Positions 5,687 to 35,557 of a stretch of 36,306 nt of DNA are shown here, piece by piece. Source of the DNA: Intoshia linei (taxonomy: Eukaryota > Animalia > Orthonectida); NCBI GenBank assembly GCA_001642005.1, contig LWCA01000261.1:1-36306 (forward strand). Direction: 5' to 3'. The notes under the pieces were generated by a model. It was not told the origin of the DNA and searched no databases. It saw nothing but the letters and a program-made list of their open reading frames with translations. Made by a program: the position numbers and the translations under genes. Every line of letters begins with the position of its first letter. Within the stretch, counting starts at the first letter, position 1.

Positions 5687-5803
5687 ATGTATATTGTAAA
5701 GTTGTAAATTATCGAGTAAATCGGTTTATTTTCATATTTTGTCATTTTTTATAAACTTTACGTAAAATTTAATTTTAAAATAAAGTTACATTTTTTAACG
5801 ACA

Positions 5804-7309
5804 ATGGAAAAAGATTCATTCGAAGGAAAGTTTGAATTTGGAATTTTGTTAATAAGTGGATCATTCAATTTGACCGTATTAAAAGGATGTGCAAAATGTC
5901 ATGGGTTTCATTTAATGAAGAAAAATGAGCCATATTATTTTTGTAACATTTTGCCATTTTCTCAATTTTGCATAGAATTGTGTGACGACGAATGTAATGA
6001 AAAATCTAATGAATTTCGGTACCGTATTGAGAAAATTGAGAAACCAAACTTGATACACATACAAACGGACTCTTACTTTAGTAGACTGGTTAGAAATATG
6101 AATGCAAAAATTGAACATGAAGTGTTCAATAATTATACCGAAATAAAAAATATGAAAGTTGTGACATATGATTATGATACAATTACTACATTATCGAAGA
6201 TGTGTGGTTTTAACAAAAAGTATTTTGTTATGGGTTCTACTGATACCGGGAAATCAACAATGACAAAATATATTGTGAATTGTCTATTAAATATAAATGA
6301 TAAGGTTTATTATATAGATTGTGATATTGGTCAATCTGAATTCTCTACACCCGGGTGTATTTCATTGTTTTGTTTGAAAAAACCAGTATTTGGACCTCCA
6401 TTCTCTCATGTTATCGAAACTGTTGCTTCTTGTACAATTGCAAATAATACGGTTACAAATATTGAAATTAATTCATATTTAGCATGTGTGAATCATTGCT
6501 ATAATCACTATTTGAATCAAAAAGTAAACGATCCATTAGTAGTAAATTGGATGGGCTGGATCCAGGGGCTCGGGTATCAGTTAATGAAGGAAACTATTAA
6601 AATTGTTCGACCCCATTTTGTTGTACAGTTAGATTCTCCAATGAAACATGTCAATATCAACCCTGTAGACACCTTGTCTATTCAAGATTCAAAGTCTAAA
6701 CGTTCTTTTTCGAAAGAATTTACCAATGTTTTAATAAAATCTCCCATTGCATACAATACCGTCAAAACTTATCCAAACCAAAAACTCAGACAACTCCAAT
6801 TTCTAGTTTATTTTTCGAACGTATTTAAGGTGTTCAATGTTGCTCTTTCTTTAAATTATGCTAAACCTTACATGATACACTTTTCAAATATCTTTATTAA
6901 GCTTCACACTAAAGTGCCTCCAGATATGTATTGTGATGTCATAAATGCGAGCGTGGTTAGTTTGTCACATTTAGAAGATAATTGCGATTATACCCATAAT
7001 TATTGCAATATTTCTAAAATGAATATTCTTCAATCCAATACTACCGAAAAATTTGATCATTTAGGCTACGGTATATTATTTTTTATTAGAAATTTAGCTT
7101 CATTTTTAGGTATAATAAGAAACGTTGATTTAATAAACAGAATTATTTTTGTTATTACTCCTTTATCTTCAAAAATTATTTCACAAGTAAATGTCATCAT
7201 ATGTACAAAAATACCACTTTTAACGAATATTCTTAGTTCTCAGGTAATATTAATATTTTGTTTTCTTATCTACAATGCATTGTAGTGTATTTATCCGTTA
7301 CAGGAATAA
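5804..7309 (+). CDS. NOL9: Polynucleotide 5'-hydroxyl kinase NOL9/Grc3 (Clp1 family)
   Basis: P-loop GSTDTGKST, DCDIGQSEF, PLVVNWMGWIQGLG and C-terminal LGYG|IIRNVD...IFVITPL. 39-nt intron 7071-7109, intron 7244-7285 and a probable terminal exon 7286-7309. Confidence 0.9.
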
Positions 7310-8250
7310 GGTGATAAAATATTTTGAACGAATTATAAATAATTTTTTTACGAATTGGATAATGAGTGCATTGTAAGGTTGATAATCGGTAAAAATTTAT
7401 AATGGTAAATTATATAAATATTATAATTTTATTACAATGCCTATTACTATATTCTATTTGTTTGTTACATATCTTAACTTATATAAACAAATTTTTCGTA
7501 TCTGTCTGTGTGTTATTGTTCATTCCAATAACATAGTTCTAGAATTTAAATAAACACAAATTTCAAGTCAGGTTTTTTCGAGGAGAAAGTAAGATAAATT
7601 TCAATCTAAGAAACTTACATCTTACCGGTGATAACCCCATTTATCTTTATTTCAAAAATCAAACAAGTGCTAGAATTTAAAAAAAATTACAATTCATACA
7701 GTTAACACTCACATAAATTTTTGATTTTACTAAAAAATTACAATAAATTGACATTAAAATACTATTTCAAAAAATAAGAAATTAAATAAGTTTTGATATT
7801 TTAAAAAAATGTACATGTAAAAATAAAATGTATCGATAATTTACCGGTAAAAATTTATTCGGTAAATTGTCCAACCTAGTCCCAATCAAGGCTAAATTAG
7901 GCCTCAACAAATTATTGACAATATTAAATTTAACATTTTTTTTATCGCATATCATTATGCTTTAAAATATTGACTCAACCCATATAATTGTACAAAATAA
8001 TTACAGTAATGCTAAAAAGGGTCTACTGTATTACAATTAAATTTTTACCCATTTTGGTCGTGACAGAACGGGTAATTGAATTTGTATATACATTTATGTC
8101 TATTTTTGTATTGTGATATAGTGCAATGGTCAAATGTACGCGCACCTAGGGTGCATTTGAAATTTTCACATATTTATATAACATTTTTTACATGTATGTT
8201 TTTTTATGCTGAAATGTTCCCAGCTTAATGAGATTACATCTAGTACTTAT

Positions 8251-14069: not shown

Positions 14070-15060
14070 ATCCTTACTTACTTATATAACTTATATAATA
14101 TAATATTACTTATATAAAGTAATTTAGTTAAAAATGTAAAATCTTGTATGAAAATATGTTTTGTGTTCCAGTTTATCTAAAACAGTAAGAGGAGTCTTAC
14201 TTAATCAATTTAAAAATTCCATATTTCTATTAGTTTTTCGAGAGTGATGTTTTATCGCAAATTTCATTTTCAGAAATTGAGTCCTTCAAGGTCAAAAACC
14301 CCAATTGTCTTTTTTTTTAAATTCAAACCAGTCCTAGAATTATAAAAAATATTCAATCTGATCAAGACTTTAAAATTATCAACATTATAATTATTTTAAA
14401 TTTAAAAATCTCATATCTTCACGACCAAAACCACAAATTACCTTTATTAGTAAAAATTAAAAAAGTCCAAGAATTTTATACAACATAAATTCGGGATAGT
14501 TTTTTAAATCATAAGCATTAATCGATAAAACGTTCAATTTCACGATCAAAACCACAGATTACCCTTTTTTTTAAATTAAAAAAGATTTATCATTTAAAAA
14601 TATTTACAGTTGATACAGTTATATGCAGTTAACACAGACAAAAAATTCAATTTGATAAAGTGACGCCTTCTTTATTCTGATACAACTTATTACTCACTTT
14701 TTAATTTTTAATTTGAATCCAACATTTAAAAAATATTGGTTGATAATATATTAAAAAATTATTTTTCACCAGGAATGCGTAGATTTCTGGGGTTGCAAAT
14801 TTGTATTTATACAACTGGATAAGCTCTATCTGAATAATCCTTTTTTTTAATTTGCTGACAGTTTAATTATTTCAATTTTTTTGTTTCAATAAAATATTTC
14901 GAAATACAAAAAATAAATACTAAAGTGTTTTTTTGACCTCGAAAGCGTCACTTATTCAGATTGAATTTTTTTGTGCGTTAACAGGATACAACTGTACCAT
15001 GTGTAATTTTTTTAAAATTCTAGGGCTGTTTATATTTTTAAAAAAAAAAAATCTGAGTTT
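14070..15060. repeat. Multi-copy repeat family (copies ~21090-21727, ~26150-26783, partial ~7469-7680), possibly Helitron-like
   Basis: The block aaaaatattggttgataatatattaaaaattatttttcacc.ggaat.cgtagat...cacttattc.gatt...ctagggctgttt is present three times. One end reads TCCT(T)ACTTATATAA...tgtctgtgtgt, resembling non-autonomous Helitron 5' ends. Confidence 0.65.
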
Positions 15061-16581: not shown

Positions 16582-19500
16582 ATGCCTAGAATTAATTCTG
16601 ACCACGTCAAGTTATTTAAAAATAGTGGGAAAAGTTTGGTAATTTTTTTGCCACAATTTTTAAATTTTCATCAGGATGTTCGAAAAAGACGGTTAGAAAG
16701 GAGTGTTGAACTGCGTAAACAAAAACGTGATGAACAATTATCGAAACGAAGACAAATTGACGAAAGTGTGTCTAATGATAGTTTATCCGACGTGTCTATT
16801 GTGTCCAGCGAAAAAGTGATTGATTCTATATTTATTTGATAAATAACTAATGCACTGTAAAATTAAGCACAAAGTAAAATTTACACAGTACTGAATCAAA
16901 GTCTAGATGACAATTAATTAATTATATTTACCAGGATGGAATTCAAGCTATAGAAAAATTGTTAATGTCAAATTCTGAAAAAAAAATTTCACAAGGAGCG
17001 CAACTATCACGCCAAATATTGTCCAAAGTAGAATCACCTCTAATACAAGAATTTATAGATCGAGGAATAATGCTTAAATTGGTATCTTTATTGGAATACA
17101 ACAAGTATGTGATTGTAAAAATGTTGATTTCATCTTATTTTAATTAGTGAAACGGTACAGTTTGAATCTGCTTGGGCCTTGACCAATATTGCATCAGGAA
17201 ATTCTGAACAAACACAATGTGTTGTGAAAGCTGGAGCATTGACAAAATTGATAAACCTGTTAAAATCAAACAATATGATTTTATGTGAACAAGCTATCTG
17301 GGCAATTGGAAATATTTCTGGAGACGGCTCTCAAATGCGAGATTTAGTTATTAATTTAGATGTCATTTCTTACTTTGAAAACTTTACTACTAAAAAAATG
17401 TCACTAACCTTTTGTAGAACTTTAAGTTGGGCATTATCAAATTTGTGTCGAAATAAAAATCCTTTTCCACCTGAATGGGCTGTCAAAAAATTGATAAATT
17501 TGATGCACACATTAATTGAAATTAATGATTCCAATGTGCATGGTGATATTTGCTGGGCTGTATCATATTTGACTGATGGACCTGATGAGCGTATTAAGGT
17601 TGTTATGTCTAGTGGTAACTTTTATAATTTAGTCAGTGCCGAGCTTAGCATATTCGAAGCCCCTCTTGGGTGCCTTCATCAAAATCTATTTAAAATTTTT
17701 GTAAAAATGGGCCTCATTTTTCCAACTCGAACAATAACTATTTTCTTTAATATTAATTATTTTGTGTGATAAATTTAAAATGTCACGATCGATAGTCTTG
17801 GAGATGTTGCTAGGGGTTATTTTACATTTTCGGTGGCTCGAGGTTTGTAGGTTGGGCTCGCAATCTAGTTAATAACTGTACAACTAATAAGTGATTCCAA
17901 CCATTGTAGTTGTATTTTGGTAATCCTTTCATCAAATTCGACTGAACCGTATTTTATATTCCGTATATACCGTTTTTATATTCTCAGTCGATGCCTTTTT
18001 TAGACTTAAAACATTTTACGACCCTTTAAATTTGTATTAAAACATGTCTGCGAGAATAATGGTGTCATATAAGATTTTTTGTTGGTTTTTTCATTTCAAA
18101 TCTTACCGTCCCTGATTTGGAACCTAATTCAGCCACTCTGATACCTGTTCAGTCGCGTAACCTTATTTTCAAATTATCTTGGTTTGTAATATTTAAAATC
18201 AAACCAAATTCCCCCTGGTCTGATATTGAATTCTTGTATATTTTAATTATATTGTATACTAAAATGGAGGGGTGATTCATTTCAATCACAAATTATGATA
18301 GGGATCCGTTAAAACTTGATTATAATTATGACAAACTTTAGGGTTCCTAGGAAAATATTTTTCAATTTGTAAAGCCTAGGCTTAAATGGGTGATTTCATA
18401 GATGGTTGGAAGTCACTTCTCTAATATATTTAATTTTTTATATTTGTAACATCGTTAGGGTTAATACCTAAAATTGTTAATTTGTTCAATCATTACAACA
18501 TTCTTTCAATTTTGACACCAATTATTCGAGTTGTAGGAAATATTGTTTCTGGCAATGACGAGCATACAAGAGTAATTAATAATTTAATATTTATGTAATA
18601 TTTTTCATTATAGATGATTTTGAATTATAATATTTTGTCTAAATTTCCAAATATTTTACGAGATCATAACAAATCTCTTAGTAAAGAGTTGATGTGGACA
18701 GTTTCTAATATTGCAGCCGGTAAACCTGACCAAATCGAGCAAATTATTATTTCCAAATTAACTAAACCTATAATAAAATGCTTTAAAAATGTAATTTTTT
18801 TAAATTGAATTAAATCGGAACTGTTGTGAAAAGCTACCACTTTTTTCAAAATTTAAAATGTTCAGTTTTCCTATTAAAACGAATTTTATCTAGGCAAAAA
18901 GTAAATTTTCGACCAAAAAACCGAACCATGGGCTCTGAATACAATTTGAAAAAAAATTTTTTTCATTAAAATACCTTTTTAACGATTAAATTGTGTTTTA
19001 TATATATTACATCTATAAAAAATGAATAATTTTCTGGTACCACAAATCGCCCACCATTGTTTATTATTAATTAAAAACGTATCAACTAGAAAATCTATGT
19101 AATACGTTTTAGATGAAGTGAAGGATTCGCAGACTCTAATTTCTTAATGAAAAATTTGTATTTAACTTGCTTTTTTAGTTAATTTTTCTCAGGTTCCCTC
19201 AAAGTTTTTTCAGTCTCAACGTTCTGATTGGTGATATAAATCAATAATCCCGAAGATAAGTATATCAATTGTACTCTTTTTCTATTTATTATACCTACAA
19301 CGTGTAAGATGTACTATTATTTCAGAATGATTACTGAAATTAAATCTCATTTGACTAATCAGTTAGAAACTATGTATTTACCCTACTCTTGAAGTTTAGG
19401 TAAATAAATTTCGAATTTTGGTATAATAATTAGTAAACTTTAAGAGGAACAGTGAGTATTTATGAAACAATTAATTTTGCGTCAATTGAACCTTGATTAA

Positions 19501-20502
19501 ACCTCGTGTTTTACATTCTTGCTTATTTTAGGGAAATTATAGAACAAAAAACGAATGTATTTGGATAATAAATAACATTAGTACATGTGGAACCATCGCT
19601 CAATTGCAAAAGTTTATTGATCGAGGGGTTTTATATTCTCTCAAATCTTGCTTTGAAATTGCTGATGACACAATGACTCTATTGCTTATTGATACAATTT
19701 ATGCTCTTTTAAAGGTACATATATTTAAAAACATTTATTTACATGAGTATTTTATGCGTATTTGTTTTATTGGGGCATCAGGTGTCCATTTTTTTTCTAC
19801 TGACTACTATATTATTTTATTATTGAAATTTATCTTTGAAATGGGTCACTACGAAAACGTTTGGTTACTTTGATCTAAATATTGTTTATAAATTAAAATT
19901 TAATAAAAATGTCTATTTATAGAACTGTAGTGCTAATAATTTTTTAAATGAAATATGTTTGATGGTCGAAGAAAGTGGTTTACTCGATTTGATAGAGGAT
20001 TTGCAACATTCTGAACACCCAGATATTTATAAATCCGTCTTAAAACTAATTCAAAGTTTTTTCTATGTAAGTTATATTAATTTATTATTTTATACTGTAG
20101 ACAAATATATATATTTTATTTTAACTCAGTGAAATTTTTTAAATTCAGTCAATACTTTTTTCTAAAAAGAGTAAATATTATTGCAATGATCTCATTTTAG
20201 TTCTTCAAAGTAACATTTTTGGTAGTAAATACTGATTTTGTATTTATATCAATTTTCTGAGAAATTGAGAAAGCTTTTAATCATTTATTAAATTTAATTT
20301 TCTAAATTAGTATAATAGTAGTTCACTACTATTACACCATTATATTATAATTTTAAATTATTGATGTAATTATTTTTCAAAATATAAATTACTAATTAAT
20401 TATAATTATATAATGACATCAAAATTAGAATTATAAATATTAGTTTCGTGCGCAAATTTGTATTACACATTAAAATATAATATTTAGGAAGAATCAGACT
20501 AA
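16582..20502 (+). CDS. KPNA2: Importin subunit alpha (alpha-2/KPNA2/pendulin-like), about 9 exons
   Basis: IBB domain ([27 protein letters not shown]) and ARM repeats ([78 protein letters not shown]), ending [23 protein letters not shown]...FFY|EESD*. The NLCRNKNP motif points to the alpha-2 clade. Confidence 0.92.
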
Positions 20503-21089: not shown

Positions 21090-21727
21090 ATCCACATTTT
21101 TTTTTTGAAATTGTAGGATCAATATTTACATTTTTTATTTTAATCGAAATATTTGAAAAATATTGGTTGATAATATATTAAAAATTATTTTTCACCGGGA
21201 ATTCGTAGATTTCTGGGGTACAAATTTTGTATTTATATCAACTGGAAGAAGCTCTATCAGATAAATCCTTTTTTTAATTTTTGACCGTTAATTATTTCAC
21301 ATTTTTGGTTTTAATAAAATATTTCGGAAAAAAAATATATGAATACTAGAATGCTTTTTTGACCATGAAGTCGTCACTTATTCAGATTAAAATTTTTTAT
21401 GTGTGTTAACATGATACAACTCTACCACCTGTAAATTTTTTGAAATTCTAGGGCTGTTTTCAAAAAAAAGGAAGGATAATTTGGGGTTTTGGCCCTGAAG
21501 ATATAATTTTTTTAAATTTTCCAACTTGTTTGATTTTCAAAAAGAGGGACAACAAGGGTTATTGACCCTTAAGATGTGAAATTAGGAGGTTGAAATTTAT
21601 CTTATTATACGTCCCGGAAAAAACTGTAATTGAAATGTTATCTTTAAAAAATTTTAAAAATGCTAGTTATTTTAATAAAGTAGGACACACAAACAAAAAT
21701 CGCGTTGCCTTTTATATAAGGTAGGAT
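21090..21727. repeat. Copy of the repeat family at 14070-15060 and 26150-26783
   Basis: Long near-identical alignment with 26150-26783; ends in tatataaggtaggat. Confidence 0.8.
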
Positions 21728-21779
21728 GTTTACAATTCAATTGTTAACATAGTCTCACAATGTCTCACAAACTCCTTAC

Positions 21780-22580: not shown

Positions 22581-23105
22581 TTATTTTTCTGTTCTTCTTT
22601 TTTTTCTTTTGATAGTGAATCGGGGTACATACCTCTGACTTACACAATTTTGAGTGGGTTTAACTTTTGATAGATGATGCGATTGTGGAATGAATTTATT
22701 TTTCGGCATGTACTTCGATTTTTGAATGTATTTATTATTCAGCATGCACTCCGATGGTTTAATGTATTTACTTTTCGGCGTGTACTTCGATTTTTGAATG
22801 TATTTATTTTTCGGCATGCACTCCGATGGTTTAATATATCTACTTTTCGGCGTGTACTCCGATGGTTTAATGTATCTACTTTTCGGCGTGTACTTCGATT
22901 TTTGAATGTATTTATTTTTCGGCGTGTACTCCGATGGTTTAATGTATCTACTTTTCGGCATGTACTTTGATTGTTCACAGAAGTTATCTTCCGATAAATA
23001 ATTCGATTGAGCGTATTCACAGTCCGATTGTGGAAATGAGTCATCTTCCGGTGAAGAATCCGATTGTTGATGTGATAAATTGATATCGTTAATATGTTCG
23101 AACAT
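22581..23105 (-). CDS. Orphan 174-aa protein: acidic N-terminus, eight 12-aa Tyr/Lys/Pro repeats, basic C-terminal NLS-like tail
   Basis: Single ORF from ATG 23105 to TAA 22581 that stays open in non-repetitive sequence on both sides of the repeat. Repeats are KYTPKSRYIKPS / EYTPKNKYIQKS; the tail is KRKKRR. Confidence 0.6.
   Translation of the reverse strand: MFEHINDINLSHQQSDSSPEDDSFPQSDCEYAQSNYLSEDNFCEQSKYMPKSRYIKPSEYTPKNKYIQKSKYTPKSRYIKPSEYTPKSRYIKPSECMPKNKYIQKSKYTPKSKYIKPSECMLNNKYIQKSKYMPKNKFIPQSHHLSKVKPTQNCVSQRYVPRFTIKRKKRRTEK
22680..22968. repeat. Tandem minisatellite, 36-bp unit built from 18-bp sub-units, about 8 copies
   Basis: Units such as ttttcggcgtgtactccgatggtttaatgtatctac and ttttcggcgtgtacttcgatttttgaatgtatttat alternate. 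Confidence 0.9.
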
Positions 23106-24848: not shown

Positions 24849-25666
24849 TTGAACTCATGTAACAATTGGGAACAGTCCATCTCATCAAAAATTATTTTTT
24901 GATCCTCCAATTTTAACAATTTATTTATAAAAATAAATTTTTTTACAAATTTAAATGCCAATACCTTGCGTGATGGCTTCACAAACTACGCATTTCTAAT
25001 GTTTTTATAAATACATAAACTTGTAAAAGTACCGTTTTATCGAGACGAACGCAATTCATATATACTCCATTATAAAAATTTAAATTTAAAAGGTTATCCA
25101 ATGTGTGAAATGCGCTATGAAGGAAATTAAAATATTACACGTAATATAACCTGGTCACTATTTTGAATGCTTCCATACAACATATAGCTAAATGTGATTT
25201 TAATGATTAAACAATACTTGAAATTTACCTGAAATTGAACAATTTGTAGTAATTACAGCAGGTATAATGTTGGATAATATCTCTAAGGCTTATATATAAT
25301 TGTCAGTTAAAAAATATACCTTGAATTTTATTTGTGTCAACATTATATTCAATATTCCATTTTTTTGCATGCTGGATAGCCTCATTCAATATCCATTTTA
25401 AATGCTTTTCATTAGTTGTAGAAAAATCTTCTAAAATAAAATAATAGTCGACTGAAATACAAAATTACCTTCAAATGGTATTACTTTTTCCCATAATACG
25501 ATTTTAGCGTATAAAACGCAATGGCCAAATGATTTTGGAAAGTTACATATGGTACACACAGGATATGTAACTTTAGAAGAAAATAAGTCTATTGTACATT
25601 CCAAACAAGCAGTTAAACTGGGAAATATTACTCTCACGCTACCCATTAACCCTTCTGTTCCTCCAT
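24849..25666 (-). CDS. UBA3: NEDD8-activating enzyme E1 catalytic subunit UBA3 (internal exons only; 5' exons not in the window)
   Basis: DGGTEGLMGSVRVIFPSLTACLECTIDLF...YPVCTICNFPKSFGHCVLYAK..LW (catalytic Cys), then KHLKWI, NIIPAVITTN, ICCMEAFKIVT and KCVVC. The Arg in GSVRV matches the UBA3 selectivity Arg (Gln in UBA1). Confidence 0.88.
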
Positions 25667-26148
25667 CTATATTTGAAAAATATAAGTATTTTTTAATAAT
25701 AATTAAAATAAGTGCGAATGTTTTTTACTTCTGGAAAGCTGTATATAAATACTATTGTGCATTTATATAAACACTAGTGTACATTCATATATGGACCATT
25801 TTAACTTTTGATTGTATTGCACGGCATTATATAATTAGATTTATAATATTATTTAGGATTGGACTGTTTTTACTTTATTTTTAATATTATACACACATTC
25901 TGTTTAATAAATTAAAAAAATGGGATAACAATTGTTTTTAAAATTCTTTACACAAATAGTACAATAAAATTAAGATGGAAGAATTCACTTTAAAGTTAAA
26001 AGAAATGTGATATGAAGGTTACATCTGAAACAAGTTTGGGAACCACTCCTTTAAAGAGTTAATAATAGTGAATAGTAGGATTTTAAGTTAGATTTTCAAC
26101 GTGAATTTATTTTTTAGTAAAATAAAAATGTGCCCTTGCAGAGCTAGG

Positions 26149-26149: not shown

Positions 26150-26783
26150 TTTAATGCACAATTTTTTTGAAATTGTAGGATCAATATTTACATTTTCAAT
26201 TTTTGGTTTCAATCGAAATATTTGAAAAATATTGGTTGATAATATATTAAAAATTATTTTTCACCGGGAATGCGTAGATGTCTTGGGTAAAATTTTGTAT
26301 TTATATCAACTGAAATAAGCTCTATCAAAAAAATATATGACTACTAAAATGATTTTTTGATCGTGAAAGTGTCACTTATTCGGATTGAAATTTTTTGTGT
26401 CTGTTAACAGGATACAACTGTACCACCTGTAAATTTTTTAAAATTCTAGGGCTGTTTTCATTAAAAAAAGGGTAATTTGGGGTTTTGGCCCCAATTTGAA
26501 GATATATTTTTTTTAAATTTAAATTTATCATAATATTCATGATTTTAAAATCCGTATCAGAAGATATATTTTTTTAAATTCTCCAACTCGTTTGATTTTC
26601 AAAAAAAAAACAATTGGGGTTTTTCACCCATAAGATGTGAGTTTGGGAGGTTGAAATATATTTTGCTAACACTCCGGAAAAAACTGTAATTGAAATGTGG
26701 ACTTCATAAAATTCTAAGACTGGTATTTATTGAAATAAACGGTAACACACACAGACAACAAAGCATATTATATAAGTAAGGAT
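26150..26783. repeat. Copy of the repeat family at 14070-15060 and 21090-21727
   Basis: Near-identical to 21100-21727; ends in tatataagtaaggat. Confidence 0.8.
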
Positions 26784-26925
26784 ATTAATACATGTATTAT
26801 ATGTAGTAAAAATCTTTAAAATCAGTGTTTCTCAATTAAGGGAGAATCGCACCCTAACGACGCGATTTTTCTATAATGTTAATAAAATTAAATTAAAAAA
26901 AATAAAAAAGATAAGAGTTCGTTAA

Positions 26926-28588: not shown

Positions 28589-31500
28589 TTACAATTGAAC
28601 AACATGTGTCAAACTATATAAATCAATAGGACTGCTGGTGTCAATCTAAAAATATAAATTAGTACAGAGATGAAATGTATAATATAATATTATGAAACCT
28701 AACCATGGACCCACCAGAAATGTTTAATTTTAAAATTTATTTAAAAAATCTTTGAGAACCGCTAGTCTACTTTATAAAAAATGTACCTTAATATTTCTAT
28801 TATTCACACTCCTTCTGTATGTCAAAATTGCAAAAGAAACTAACCCAGCACCACCACTTACAATTAAAAGATATGCAATGTATTCTAGGTAAGAAACTAT
28901 GAACACAATTTGAGCCACCATAACTGCAGTTTTGGTATCAATGCAATATCTCTAAATTTATTTAATAAACCAATAAATAAATACTATACCTCTTGTAAAC
29001 TATATATTGGAAAAGCATAATCGCTCAATAATGAATGGTTAATTTTTTCATTTCCACTATTTTTATATTAAAAAAAAAACAAAAAAAAATGTACTTGTAA
29101 AGAACATAATGTGTATTTCGTATCATCAGACTAGCTGTAAATTGCTTTTGACTACACAAGACTTTACCGGTGACCTATAAATGAATATATACCACAATTA
29201 CGAGTCAATTACCGGCTCCAATTTTAACCACGATTCCGTTTTTTCAAAAGGTTTGATACTAGATTTTCTTAAAAATTTGTCTACTTGAGAATATTGAGGT
29301 ATTGAATATACAAATTCTCCCACTAAATAAATTGTATTATAAAAAATTAATAAAGCAATATTTTAAGGAGATATTATGACTATAGGGAAGTGCTTTCCAA
29401 TAGGTAAGTCGGAGATGAATTCTAGATGTGTCGCCAACATTTGACCACTTTGTATTATCGAAAAATGACAAATTTTTTATTAATACATTTGTAATTATAT
29501 GATGCCATTATTTTTATTCGAAAAAAATCGATTTTATAATCAGATTTTAAAATTATAATTTTTTTCATTATCTTATACTGACGTGTAGCGACTATTTTTT
29601 TAATTGAAATGTATGTAGTCAAGAAACTGATTAGAAAGCACTGATAGGGTCGATAAATCATGTAAATGAAGGAATATTACTTTTACACGGCATTAAATTA
29701 AAATTTCCAGTTTTTGTACAACAAAAATTGACATTTGTTTTATCATTAATGTCTCCATTTAAACAATTTTGTTTACAAAAATCTACATTAATACGATTCT
29801 TTAATGGGTTTTGATAAATATTAGGTGAAATTTTCTAAAAAATAACAATATAATAATAAATTTTTTGTTTTTACGTATTGATAAGTGTGAATTCCTCGAA
29901 CTAAAGCAGTTTCATCAAATTGGACAGAAATGGATCTACACAATTCAGGATCAAAAATGTACAAATCTCTAGTTTTATCAACAAATGGATTCCAACCACT
30001 TCCATCTGTTCCATTCAACATGTTACTGTTTTCGCTATTCCAATAATTCAATTGTCTAAATTAAAATAATAACTTAATTAACAAATAATAGTAATTGTCG
30101 TATAGTAAATATAGTATACTAAGTTGACTGTTATGTACTACGTACAAACAGGACTTAAGCTCTGCCGATGGCACATTTTTATTATACTTAAAAAATAAAT
30201 TCACGTTAAAAATGTTACACAGATGTTAGTATACAACGTTACAATGAACAATAATAATCTCATCAATGCATATAAGCGTAAATTTTCCATTTCACCAATA
30301 ACGAATAGCTGCATGCCAACTCACATTTGCAGTGTATGGTATATGTATATTAATAAGCCAAACACTTTACACTTTGTAAATCTACGAATTTGGTCTTAAC
30401 CTAAAAATCATCAAAATGATTGCTATTTTTGCTCCTTTTTTATTGCATTATTTATGTATGTATACGACGGCGGGTGGTTCGTATGACACGAGTTCGGCAC
30501 GTTCGGTACGCTACTGCTGATCTCCAAGCGAACACGAAGCATGTAAGCACAACATGAAGAATGTGTAAGCAGATTACTAATCTATATGAAGATAGTAGTG
30601 CCGCTTCAGAAGAAACTAAGTTCCTAATAACCCTTGGTAATGTTTTTCCGACGTTTAGGCACAAAGTATTATCTACAGCCCGTTTTCTACATTTAATCGA
30701 GTGTGAAAATAATGGCATGTATGCTCCCATTATATCGATTTTCGAAAATGCAGTTAATGATACACACATCATGGAAAATATAGACACGACATCCATACTC
30801 CAGCAGTATGTGAACACACAACACAGGGTTTAAGTACTCGAGCATGTAGCTTATGCCTTAAACATGCTCACATTCCTAGACCCTATGGATAACAACGAGA
30901 TCGAGTACTTGACTTATATCTATTTACCTGACATACTATGCGGTTCGACGTGCTACGGTGAAGGCACTGACATGACGGAAAAGCTTATGAAAGACCGAAA
31001 ACGTATCGAGTTTAATTTCGCTATTGGATGTGAGAGTGGCTATATTTCACTATGGGAAGATTACAAATCTTGGTTAATTTTTCCAACAGTAATGGAAACA
31101 AAATTAAACACGTATAACATAGAGGTGAAGAGGAAATGTGGGTGTGAAATTTTGTTAGAATTTTCAAAGGTGCGTACAGATAATCCGCAACGTGAAAGCG
31201 GCACCACAAGTCCCCTTTACCATGAAAATAAATACTTAGTTTTGAAAACAGTTTTAACATTCTTTAAAGGTGATTTATGTCTATTATTTGACATAAAAAG
31301 AACCCAAGTTATCAAAACTTGAATAAATATGTGGAGCGTTTTGTTGTATGTCTCGGAATTCTAGATCCGAAATTCAAAGTTATAATAAACAATATAATAT
31401 ATAAATATAATATAATATAAATATATAATAAATAAAAACTCAAAATCAAAAATTTAGCCCATTTTTTTAATTTAAAAAATCATAAACTGCATATTTCAAG

Positions 31501-34500
31501 TTAAAGCAGATGAATATAGCAACCACATAAACTCTTTAGAGAGCGAAACAAATCGAAGATTTATGGATTTTAAGTTGATGGAAAAAGAATTCAATTTATT
31601 ATCTTGCCCATTTTCAGTTGACGTTTCAACCGTTCCAGATAATCTTCAACTTGAGCTGATTGTACTTGGTCGCAATATTTCATTACCATTTATACCTCAA
31701 TCTTTTACAAATCCCAATCAAATACGGAAATATTCAGTACATACTGCTAAAAATCATAGAAAACCATACAACAATCGGTTATTTGCATTCTTAGACTCGT
31801 TACAGATACCAAAAAACTTAAAAAAATTAAAAATTGTGGTTTCGATAACATCGAAAAATCTATTCTTCAATTGCTTCGTATGTGTATAGAAAAGAACATA
31901 CCTGTTTCTGGTCGACAGTTACAAGATCAATAATTATCGTTTGCTAAAAAAACGAAATTCATAACTTTAGGGCATCTTAGGGATGATTTCATAACTTTAA
32001 GTCACGAAATGATGTACTTAATAAAAAATTATGCGGTGAGGCTGCCAGCGTAGATAATACCATATGTGAAAATTGGCGAAAAAACCAACAAAATGTTTTT
32101 AAAAGTTATCGTAATGAAGATATTTTTAATACCGATGAAACGAGTTTATACTATAAAGCAACCCCAAGGCATACGTTAGCTTTCAAAAACGAAAAAATTA
32201 GTGGAATCAATATATTTTAATGTTATTACTAGTCAATCTTTGGAAAAGAAAATAATTATATACTATTGGCATTGGAATACAAAGAGACTAAGTGTTGATG
32301 ATTTTTTAGTTCCTATACGGCTTGTGGTACCAGAAAAATTGGTTGAGAATCTGTATTCTTATGCTTTAACATTACTTAAAGGAAAATTCACTGTTAAGAA
32401 TTTGATGATCGCTGCTGCCACATTTAATAGTAGAGAAATTGTTATTGGTACCGCTGTAAAACAATTAGAAAGAGTACCAGCTGATGAGTTGCAAAAGATA
32501 GTTCATTCTGATTGGATGGCTGTGTATGTCAGTTCTTTTGAATGTTCTAAGACTTTATCGACATTGGTCAAATCAGAAGAAAAATATCGAAATTACTGTG
32601 ATAAAACGATATTCGGGAAATTGTTGGCTACTATTTTTTTCACCAAAATGCTGTGTCAAGAAACATAATACTGTAAATGCAATAGTCGCCGCCCAAATAA
32701 ATGAAAGTTTAGTTGATGAGTGTGGTGCTACTGCTGATATGAAAAATTATGTTTCATCGTGCCTGTCTAAATTCTTATGTAATATAAAAAAATTTGTAAA
32801 TCCCGTAGAGAATATAGCATATCAATGGATAGGTTCTGCCGATTCATCACGATAGAGGAGGAACTGGATATGGTCGCAGCTGAATATGTTGGACCGGACA
32901 AATGTACTGTTAATAGTACATTGATCGATTCATTTCCTCCCGATTATATAAGTAATGTATTGACATATTCTGTTCCTAGCGCAGATGGTGAGATAAGAAA
33001 ACACCCATTTTCCGATGACGCAGCGCCAATTTGATTGGAACAGAAAAATTACCACTTTTAATGATTGGAAAATCAAAAAATCCAAGGTGCTTTGCTGAAT
33101 TCGACAAAAATAATTTGCCAATATTGTATAAAAATTATAAAAAAGATTGGATGACTGCGATCTTATTTGAAGAGTGGCTGCACATAATTGATAAAAAATT
33201 TCATAAAGAAAACCGCCAAATACTGTTAGTAATTGACAAATGTACGGGCCATTGTAAAACTTTAATAGAACCACTAGACTCAATAACACTTTTATTTCTT
33301 CCACCTAATACAACTTGTGCTTTACAGCCCATGAATATGGGGATTATCAAAAATATATAACATTCAAGCTAGTTTATATTATATTACAAATTATATAGCA
33401 CCTTGAATAATTATAGGAAACCAAATCCCCGATTGCCGTTCCTTTTTTACCACTCCATACTTCATATCTTTCAGATATTGAATTATTTCGTAAATTTTTC
33501 TAAAAATATTATATATAGAGCCATTCATAGAGCATAATGATTAGGTTAATGAAGATTTTTCGGATGCTCTTAAAGAAGTTTTGATCATTGTGTATACTTT
33601 ATCGTTTTATTTAACCCTTAAAATTATATGAAATTTAAACAATTGTTATGTACTGTTGCTTAACGACTTTAGAGCATCCTATTTAAATGGCTCTAATTAT
33701 AAATTAACCCTTTCACTGTCTGTTTATTCTATACCATACACAGCAATTTCAATTCACACGTCTGTGTATTCTATGATATACACAGCATAATTTTGAAAAA
33801 CTTTATTTTTTTATTTTCATACATTTTCACATAGGTAATTTAAAAATAATACAAGTTTAAATTAAAAAAGAAATTTCAGACGTGTGGTGATGCATCATAA
33901 AATAGTATTAGACAGTGTATAGTACAGACAGTACTATACACTACGAAAAAAGTTCTTAGTTCTTACTAGGACCACAATAGTCAAAAACTGACAAAATTTC
34001 TGACTGAAAAGATTTTAACCGTATTACGGCATATCAACCATAAAATGGGCCTTTGAAAAAAAAATACCATTAGTTACATATATTAAATAGAAATTACATC
34101 AATTAATCCATGAACTTCAGGGTACGTCGTATACATTTGTTTATTTAATTTGACCAATGTTTCATCAGAATATCCCCATATATAATCGTGTATGTTAACG
34201 GTTCTGAAAAGGTTCAATTTGAAAGGGTAATCAAACAACATTTCAATTGAAGATCTCGTATGGCGATCAGTACTGTTTGTTATAGATAATATAGCCTATA
34301 TAAAAAATTGTTATGCATGGATAAAAAATTATACCCCGCCAACTAAATTTATCACAGTAACCAAATCATATTGACTAGCATATGACATTTCTTCATTAAA
34401 ATAGTAGGTATATTTTTCGTTGTAACTGACTGTGCCATTACAATTGTAGCTAATATCAACTTTTTCTTTGTGCTTTCTAAAAAAACAGATTTATCCAGTA

Positions 34501-35557
34501 ATAATAAATACTTTAATACCTATAAACAATCGGTCCTATTTCGTCAATAATTGGTTCACTTCCGGTAAAAACATAAGACACATTGGTGACGTTATATATC
34601 CAAAATGATATAAAAGATTCCATAGGCTTACTCCACAAATCATTGCTTAAATTTTCAGTGATGACAAAACGCTACATTTTAAAATAATAAAGTCTCATCT
34701 TATCACACAGCATTCATAAACCAACATTGTTTTAAAAAATTGAAAATATACAATAAAACTTTAATTGAAACTAAGTTTGATTTAATAACTAACGTGACCG
34801 GATTTAATGGGTCTTTCGTATTAGTATAAAATAATTGAGTTGTAATAAAATACTATTTTATAACAATTGAAAATAAATTATCGATACAATTAAAAAATAC
34901 GTAAGTGTGTATTTTTGTCTTGTCTATTTGTACAATAAAAAACCTTTTGCCATCAACGATGTATATTGTTAACGAAACATATATTAAAGAAACAATTGAT
35001 AATACTTATTAAATCATGACGATTTAATTTAAAATGAACTTGATATTTATTAGATCATTGAAAAAACTGGATATTGTTGGCGACGAGTGATCTACAAAGT
35101 ACAATGTACTTCATAACCATAGTGTCCTTTAGTACCGAAACCCTTACAGACAAATTTGTTGTAAAATGGTGGCTTCATTTTTCCAAATTAATTCAAAAGC
35201 ATTAAATAATTATACTCTTGAATATCATAATTATTTTTTGTGTTAAATTTAAAATGTCAAATCAAGAGTCTATAAAAGGTGTTTAGGGACTATGACACTA
35301 TACATAGTTTGTGAAAAATTATATTGAGACTATTTTTCATTTTCGTGACCTCAAGCTTGGTAGGTCGGTTCTGGTATCTTTTTTTGATTAAAGGACAAAT
35401 TGCATATTAAAAATTGATTAAATATTACCTCATCAAATTCTGAAAATTGAATATACATCAATAAAGACATTCCAATTAAAATTAAGAGAAAGAGCGATGA
35501 AATGATGATTAAATTTTTTACATTAAATATCCTTTTTGTATTTTTAACTTTTTTCAT
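28589..35557 (-). CDS. CD36/SCARB (LIMP-2-like) class B scavenger receptor, complete, about 12 exons
   Basis: Exons: 35429-35557 (N-terminal TM), 34520-34671 (FWIYNVTN..EIGPIVYR), 34335-34476 (NGTVSY), 34098-34295 (YIWGYSD), 33402-33499 (RNNSISERYEVWSG), 29875-30055 (LNYWNSE..NGTDG..CRS), 29681-29834, then LEP|VTG, FPI, the C-terminal TM and stop at 28589. Splice phases match, including the phase-2 intron 30056-33401. Confidence 0.9.
30460..31381 (+). pseudogene. Endogenous viral element 1: decayed methyltransferase/guanylyltransferase domain of an alpha-like (virga-like) +ssRNA virus replicase
   Basis: ORFs 30561-30833 and 30864-31322 share one frame broken by stops. Motifs parallel the tobamovirus 126K protein: YD(A)GG (frameshifted) vs YDIGG; HVRYATADLQANTKH vs HCCMPNLDVRDIMRH; LEHVAYAL...YIYLPDIL vs LHSIYDI...FHFSENLL; IEFNFAIGCESGYISLWEDYKSWL vs [29 protein letters not shown]..EFSKV vs YMKEF..KFSRI. 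Intronless and visibly more GC/CpG-rich than its flanks. Confidence 0.75.
31500..31665 (+). pseudogene. hAT transposase C-terminal fragment (GTF2IRD2-like)
   Basis: ADEYSNHINSLESETNRRFMDFKLMEKEFNLLSCPFSVDVSTVPDNLQLELI fits the RFxDF...PFSVDV..P..LQLELI motif. Confidence 0.75.
31810..32205 (+). mobile_element. pogo/Tigger transposase, 5' half (CENP-B HTH and first catalytic Asp)
   Basis: IEKSILQ...KNIPVSGRQLQ, FRAS*G*FHNFKSRN, LCGEAASVD and EDIFNTDETSLYYKATPRHTLAFKNEKISG. Contains stops and frameshifts. Confidence 0.88.
32206..33022 (+). pseudogene. Endogenous viral element 2: C-terminal (Y/iceberg) part of a virga/nege-like virus capping domain, frameshifted
   Basis: KIIIYYWHW...PIRLVVPEKLVENLYSYALTLLKGKFTVKNLMIAAATFNSREIVIG...VYVSSFECSKTL parallels tobamovirus [44 protein letters not shown] and, from recall, negevirus ORF1. 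Three overlapping ORFs are joined by frameshifts at ~32635 and ~32825. Confidence 0.75.
33023..33360 (+). mobile_element. pogo/Tigger transposase, 3' half (DDE_1 domain), truncated
   Basis: ANLIGTEKLPLLMIGKSKNPRCF...KDWMT..LFEEWL...RQILLVIDKC...FLPPNTTCALQPMNMGII; the third catalytic Asp has become Asn. Confidence 0.92.

Follow-up and report, generated by a model that had tools for sequence, protein, structure and literature searches.

Described Relatives

In the part of the account by Ahola and Karlin (2015, PMC4392871) available to us, the Core of viral methyltransferase-guanylyltransferases (MTase-GTase; PF01660) is defined by a catalytic histidine, a DxxR motif and the beta-G tyrosine, to which the alto group adds two cysteines. 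In this group the cysteines stand six residues apart before beta-C, a histidine ends beta-G, and beta-I contributes an aspartate or glutamate; positions of the Iceberg region are called conserved or semi-conserved. The window analyzed here, a 36,306-nt stretch of an AT-rich eukaryotic contig of Intoshia linei (LWCA01000261.1; GC 0.268, introns very short), contains a fragment, piece 1, that resembles the alto MTase-GTase in the order and spacing of its DGG, HxxY, FxF-x7-Y and beta-I Glu blocks and in a profile match that extends from the last part of the Core into the first part of the Iceberg. Unlike in that enzyme, the catalytic histidine lies outside piece 1, DxxR and the two cysteines were not found, the histidine after the beta-G tyrosine is replaced, and the score is below the Pfam cut-off. 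Its best single-sequence scores are to invertebrate virga/nege-like viruses, yet identity to the nearest virus is at most 21% over 137 columns.

The genomic setting recalls the non-retroviral endogenous viral elements of arthropods. According to the accessible text of PMC8048955, fragments of RNA-virus genes in Aedes lie among transposon remnants, several viruses per locus, and their reverse transcription is ascribed to a host retroelement. Unlike the arthropod elements, piece 1 resides in a marine orthonectid, and its neighbors are remnants of DNA transposons within the intron of a protein-coding gene. Endogenous nege-like elements are known in arthropods (Lu et al. 2024, as cited in the available part of PMC12282059), and the available part of PMC7412485 describes negeviruses as insect-specific.

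For Intoshia linei itself, the accessible text of PMC6396948 reports RdRP genes of viral families, probably acquired from viruses; the available contents of its seven supplements make no mention of an element of the piece 1 type, and the available text of PMC11097642 names Orthonectida once. The literature covered, with subscription papers mostly outside it, gives no account of piece 1 or of capping-domain elements in orthonectids, a group with essentially no described virome. Piece 1 is best classed as a very divergent non-retroviral endogenous viral element in a new host group. Such RNA viruses likely infected the germline of orthonectids, since viral pieces lie inside one intron of an orthonectid gene. 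We put the probability at roughly 0.84 that piece 1 is a broken intronic coding fragment, likely derived from a capping gene that belonged to an alpha-like positive-strand RNA virus not yet sampled, likely copied to DNA and fixed in the germline.

Host Intron

The intron in question (30056..33401, minus strand; 3,346 nt, GT-AG) belongs to a CD36-family gene whose other observed introns measure 38, 40 and 358 nt, and it holds piece 1, a second viral fragment (piece 2) and transposon debris. The exon downstream of it (29875..30055, minus strand) matches PF01130 with E 1.6e-16 over profile positions 239–295 and is present in spliced contigs of sequencing runs X2 and X3. The exons upstream (33402..34671, minus strand) match the same family with E-values of 1.3e-8, 8.1e-10 and 0.008 over positions 39–83, 82–131 and 145–190, in order; the exon starting at 33402 has no Pfam match by itself. 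The X3 spliced contig breaks off from the window at 30057, and the loose end that follows has a single match, at 33404, while the X2 spliced contig continues for a further 550 letters. The spliced contigs of both runs show that the host gene is expressed.

Contigs of four sequencing runs were compared with the window over 29000–31380. A 1,100-nt contig of run X1 aligns gap-free, with 7 differences, across resident repeats and on into piece 1, and retains the 5′ lesions. Two repeats lie on this side of piece 1, a high-copy interspersed one (30110..30213; copies at 606–694 and 26092–26145; each of the four runs has very many contigs of it, and Rfam has no match) and a low-copy one abutting the 5′ end of piece 1 (30244..30433; diverged contigs in X1, X2 and X3). 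Rfam gave zero matches over 29500–34500. Run X2, from a separate study, contributes a 175-nt contig over 30717–30891 of piece 1, at depth 3 compared with 84 for the host message.

An assembly chimera or contamination by live virus would account for a disagreement between the window and the run contigs at codon 30831, which points to an imperfect assembly or to one of several alleles; furthermore, the intron is spanned by no single contig, and X1 may be the source sample of the assembly. This explanation is barely credible, as collinear host exons stand on both sides and are spliced across with GT-AG ends, the X1 contig joins repeats to piece 1 without a gap, and part of piece 1 is also found in the independent run X2. 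The preliminary description had argued from the in-frame stops for germline integration of a decayed insertion rather than contaminating virus. Integration is upheld by the host flanks, and its best support is the position of piece 1 within a spliced host intron rather than the stops, one of which is absent from the run contigs.

Piece 1, piece 2 and the transposase remnant described below are all antisense to the CD36-family gene. The public gene model P0002 (30561–32665) stitches together parts of piece 1, an open stretch beginning at 31476 and piece 2; it is most likely an annotation artefact, antisense within a real intron.

Reading Frame and Base Composition

Piece 1 occupies a plus-strand frame at 30459–31322, with stop codons at 30555, 30831 and 31320. 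Its two internal stops in 287 codons compare with 8–28 in the remaining five frames, and none of 20,000 base shuffles had two or fewer stops in any frame (the minimum was 4). Its GC content is 0.385, against 0.268 for the window; of 634 stretches of equal size taken outside the intron, none was as high. Since neither the stop-poor frame nor the GC content is matched by shuffles or windows, piece 1 is a genuine, foreign-looking coding relic.

The fragment consists of a broken 5′ part (30457..30557, plus strand), with a DGG-type block, stops at 30484 and 30555 and at least one frame change, and a main frame (30558..31322, plus strand) that constitutes the alpha-like capping-domain fragment and carries the profile match at 30828–31223. 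The about 90 codons at 30558–30830 show similarity only to P0003, another gene model of Intoshia linei. The preliminary description had reported about 300 codons, mostly in one frame, interrupted at 30555, 30831 and 31320 and frameshifted at the ends. The single frame and the three stops are indeed found in the window, but codon 30831 is a non-stop codon in the contigs of X1 and X2, and its stop, seen in the window sequence only, is either an allele or an assembly error; the stop at 30484 is additional to those listed. Regarding the frameshifts, the 5′ part bears one out, but the data lend no support to one at the 3′ end: on a 24-virus profile the tail frame reaches −2.4 bits, and diverged multi-copy contigs from X1 and from the spliced run X2 (depth ~60) align to 31254–31351; they may represent another repeat overlapping the 3′ end or additional copies of piece 1.

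Similarity to Viral Capping Domains

Public libraries gave little for piece 1. PF01660, named in the preliminary description as the profile to check, matches the uninterrupted part of the frame, 30834–31319, at 13.5 bits (E 0.04), under its cut-off of 27, although it was the sole Pfam family reported there; the whole read-through had no Pfam match. The same family was detected in five of six panel domains checked, and one of these six intact domains had no Pfam match at all. Searches of PDB and NCBIfam with piece 1 yielded no match, as did PDB searches with piece 2 or with an alignment of the two Intoshia copies. A word-index protein search with piece 1 found no viral match among 519 word-sharing candidates; this search is insensitive here, because even an alignment of five viruses retrieved nothing at E 1e-10 (piece 2 retrieved its self model only). 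None of 159 viral ORFs found piece 1 by tblastn at E 0.01, and scanning viral contigs for patterns drawn from piece 1, from the two-copy alignment or from piece 2 produced no confirmed match. With phmmer, 1.84 billion representative proteins gave two matches to piece 1, its self model and P0003, and no viral, cellular or transposon protein. At the structural level, a five-virus profile reached alphavirus nsP1 in PDB at E 0.37–0.59 only, AlphaFold2 models from one-sequence and two-sequence input had a pLDDT of 30 each and are unusable for comparison with the nsP1 fold, and the ESM Atlas returned no usable match for P0003 or piece 2.

Purpose-built profiles were more informative. A motif scan of virus records gave 111 loci, of which 108 were in frame, 75 long enough and 38 below 70% identity; the panel was assembled with no targeted sampling of closteroviruses, benyviruses, endornaviruses or alphaviruses. 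Run over 366 six-frame chunks of the window, the 38-virus profile placed 32144–32695, within piece 2, first (43.6 bits) and 30825–31298, within piece 1, second (13.6 bits); neither score was equalled in 2000 shuffles. Piece 1 itself scored 14.8 bits, a value reached by 0 of 2000 shuffles, and the reversed sequence was negative. On a second profile of 24 viruses (taken from 74 loci, mainly long-genome records plus the metagenome record L126) piece 1 scored 25.3 bits and piece 2 118.7 bits, with 0 of 2000 shuffles reaching either score; a match at 25 bits is significant at genome scale, not for a universal database. As five seed viruses had been chosen by score, they were removed as a control, and piece 1 retained 22.9 bits on the remaining 19 rows. 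A profile of 32 short-genome viruses gave it 9.1 bits. In both this profile and the jackknife, piece 1 was the second-best locus of the 366 chunks, after piece 2. Finally, when the two Intoshia copies were compared with five viruses by hhalign, the match had E 8.4e-5 and a probability of 60.5 over 148 columns. The proposed homology to alpha-like methyltransferase-guanylyltransferases is thus borne out by these profiles (25.3, 14.8 and 22.9 bits) and by hhalign.

A decayed orphan host gene, or an unrecognised transposon gene, might resemble a viral profile by chance. The negative or sub-threshold results in all public libraries would suit such a gene, as would the absence of key catalytic motifs, the surrounding transposon debris and the presence of a relative elsewhere in the genome. 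We consider this improbable, given that four differently composed profiles agree under shuffle controls, that the DGG block lies upstream at the expected place although outside the profile match, and that Pfam, NCBIfam and the 1.84 billion proteins contain no cellular or transposon match; a better match of that kind had been anticipated as the result that would speak against a viral origin.

Each motif block was ranked among the six-frame positions of the window (about 72,500), using the 24-virus panel and a 57-virus panel. The preliminary description had listed DxGG, H-x6-D-x6-H, HxxY, FxF-x6-Y...W and YxxE as retained in order. The first exists at 30466 as a literal D-G-G in a different frame, followed by the stop at 30484; this block ranks 4 of 72,542 in the ungapped model and 1 of 72,542 when one profile column is skipped, in a model picked after the sequence had been inspected. 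The letters of H-x6-D-x6-H are present at 30498, but as a homolog of the HxCxP...DxxR block they rank only 1,928 and 2,432, which leaves the motif unsupported; the best rank of any frame in 30475–30560 for the SAM-binding DxxR block is 819 of 72,512. HxxY at 30843 is well placed (rank 1 on the 24-virus panel, 19 on the 57-virus panel), and FxF...Y...W at 31011 ranks first on both panels, with a spacing of x7 instead of x6. The conserved beta-G tyrosine is present, its block ranking 1 of 72,458. The beta-I glutamate is also present, with YxxE at 31113 weakly supported: it ranks 24 on the 57-virus panel and falls outside the two best sites of piece 1 on the 24-virus panel. Block order is kept, with spacings of 56 aa (55–91 in the panel) and 182 aa (125–315).

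Both cysteines, DxxR and the histidine after the beta-G tyrosine were not found in piece 1; all occur in 57 of 57 panel rows, an invariance that partly reflects selection of the panel on these motifs. The catalytic histidine before helix A falls outside piece 1, which begins at the DGG block, and the low-copy repeat occupies its place as expected from panel spacing. Judged from its motifs, piece 1 is a truncated fragment that reaches from the final part of the Core into the beginning of the Iceberg, without catalytic residues. It has no capping activity and is incapable of enzyme function, because the catalytic histidine and DxxR are missing. We regard it as a fragment derived from a homolog, neither a family member by cut-off nor an enzyme.

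Related Copy and Lineage

The gene model P0003 comes from a 28,852-nt contig and is related to piece 1, though diverged (phmmer E 3.7e-9; identity 47% over 43 residues and 23% over 102). It reaches further 5′ than piece 1 and has a histidine-containing stretch at the expected place of the catalytic histidine, without statistical support. Scored alone on the 24-virus profile, it is equalled by 22 of 2000 shuffles. The otherwise invariant histidine after the beta-G tyrosine is replaced in both copies, and P0003 is without 61 residues in its middle.

The shared substitution is one feature that could suggest viral origin followed by co-option, that is, a main frame kept open by selection as a non-catalytic host gene with its start methionine at 30561. 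In the X1 contig the frame is unbroken over 30558–31319 (254 codons) and all lesions fall in the first 33 codons (P about 0.006 for uniform lesions), and the 175-nt contig from the spliced run X2 covers part of it. However, the longest open run in the window allele is unremarkable (P 0.09–0.18), and a young insertion with junction damage would yield the identical pattern; the GC content is still foreign. A depth of 3 against 84 is what pre-mRNA or DNA carry-over would give, and the 61 residues absent from P0003 also count against co-option. We therefore grant co-option only a slight likelihood, and retain the interpretation of piece 1 as a decayed viral fragment.

A 60-row tree, computed by a quick method from 147 of 236 columns and with two hepevirus-like rows as outgroup, places piece 1 in no starred clade and gives it an end branch of 3.96, compared with a median of 0.26. 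Its best single-virus score is about 10 bits, and the best scores, 7–10 bits, belong to Nephila clavipes virus 4, L126, Sanxia atyid shrimp virus 1 and Xingshan nematode virus 1, which are nearest by score only and are not demonstrated sisters. From its distance to tobamovirus motifs, an undescribed lineage had been proposed; piece 1 indeed groups with no sampled virus, but the proper comparison is with invertebrate virga/nege-like viruses. The two hepevirus-like records matched in the same register (best E 0.056), more weakly than the virga/nege-like viruses, and a hepevirus-like origin was rejected, though a distant affinity may exist.

About 5% of single-base changes create a stop, and the 2–4 stops of piece 1 correspond to about 10–19% of residues changed, with an upper bound of 31–41%. 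Because decay explains only about 10–20% compared with a 79% difference from the nearest virus, we infer that most of this difference predates insertion; the distance of piece 1 from known viruses would be mostly the virus's own and not host decay. Piece 1 offers a bait with which to look for a branch that is missing from the alphavirus supergroup as sampled.

Second Viral Piece and Transposon Remnants

Piece 2 (32204..32974, plus strand; 118.7 bits on the 24-virus profile) is a negevirus-like fragment of the Iceberg region and beyond, with stops and frame changes. It shares 33–43% identity with the replicases of Loreto, Big Cypress, Daeseongdong 1 and Ying Kou viruses and, in a 25-row tree, forms a starred 98/98 clade with these negeviruses and three 8.7-kb records; unlike them, it has a non-arthropod host. 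It extends the negevirus-like host range to a marine non-arthropod. The homology of piece 2 is much stronger than that of piece 1, and arguably provides the clearer host-range result.

Derivation of both pieces from one virus was considered and rejected, because the negeviruses that give piece 2 about 100 bits give piece 1 hardly any score, and the profile ranges of the two overlap. As piece 1 is not close to negeviruses, the two come from different viruses. Germline infections by two separate alpha-like viruses are thus likely preserved in this intron, one virus being close to negeviruses and the other so divergent that, of 1.84 billion representative proteins, none from outside this species matches it.

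Piece 2 interrupts a pogo/Tigger-type transposase remnant (31760..33357, plus strand), identified by DDE_1 at 33022–33357 (E 4.2e-26); HTH_Tnp_Tc5 was below cut-off (E 0.0095). The stretch 32002–32200 is presumably the left catalytic part of this transposase, judging from its motifs. We also take the open stretch 31476–31670 to resemble the C-terminus of hAT/Buster transposases, a resemblance for which Pfam on this stretch gave no support.

As proposed for mosquito elements, the viral RNA could have been reverse-transcribed to cDNA by the reverse transcriptase of a host retrotransposon, and the cDNA then captured at a DNA break; neither a retrotransposon remnant nor a target-site duplication was identified at the locus. 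Piece 1 would since have been tolerated in the intron of the host gene, and have persisted there, because splicing removes it from the message.

We speculate further that piece 1 and P0003 are the sole trace so far of a deep, family-level alpha-like branch with altered capping motifs that infected orthonectids, and that the oversized intron is a repeat capture site feeding small-RNA antiviral memory outside arthropods. The second part draws on the shared orientation of the transposon and the two unrelated viral pieces, all antisense to the host gene; host transcription would then supply antisense RNA. We consider this combined reading unlikely.

Other Features of the Window

A candidate third viral piece at 14472–14807 was taken to be noise, its score falling from 10.3 to 3.0 bits on the jackknife. 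Ordinary host genes are located at 5720–7285, 16582–19873 and 25431–25724; the NOL9/Grc3 gene has the Pfam domains CLP1_P and NOL9_C, and others, recognised by eye, we take to be importin-alpha-like and UBA3-like. A dispersed repeat family with internal inverted similarity (14290–15046, 21100–21730, 26162–26786 and 7469–7703) shows 70–90% identity between copies. A tandem repeat of ~36 nt lies at 22680–22993 within a minus-strand open frame, and an imperfect, MITE-like palindrome of ~165 nt is found at 1803–1966.
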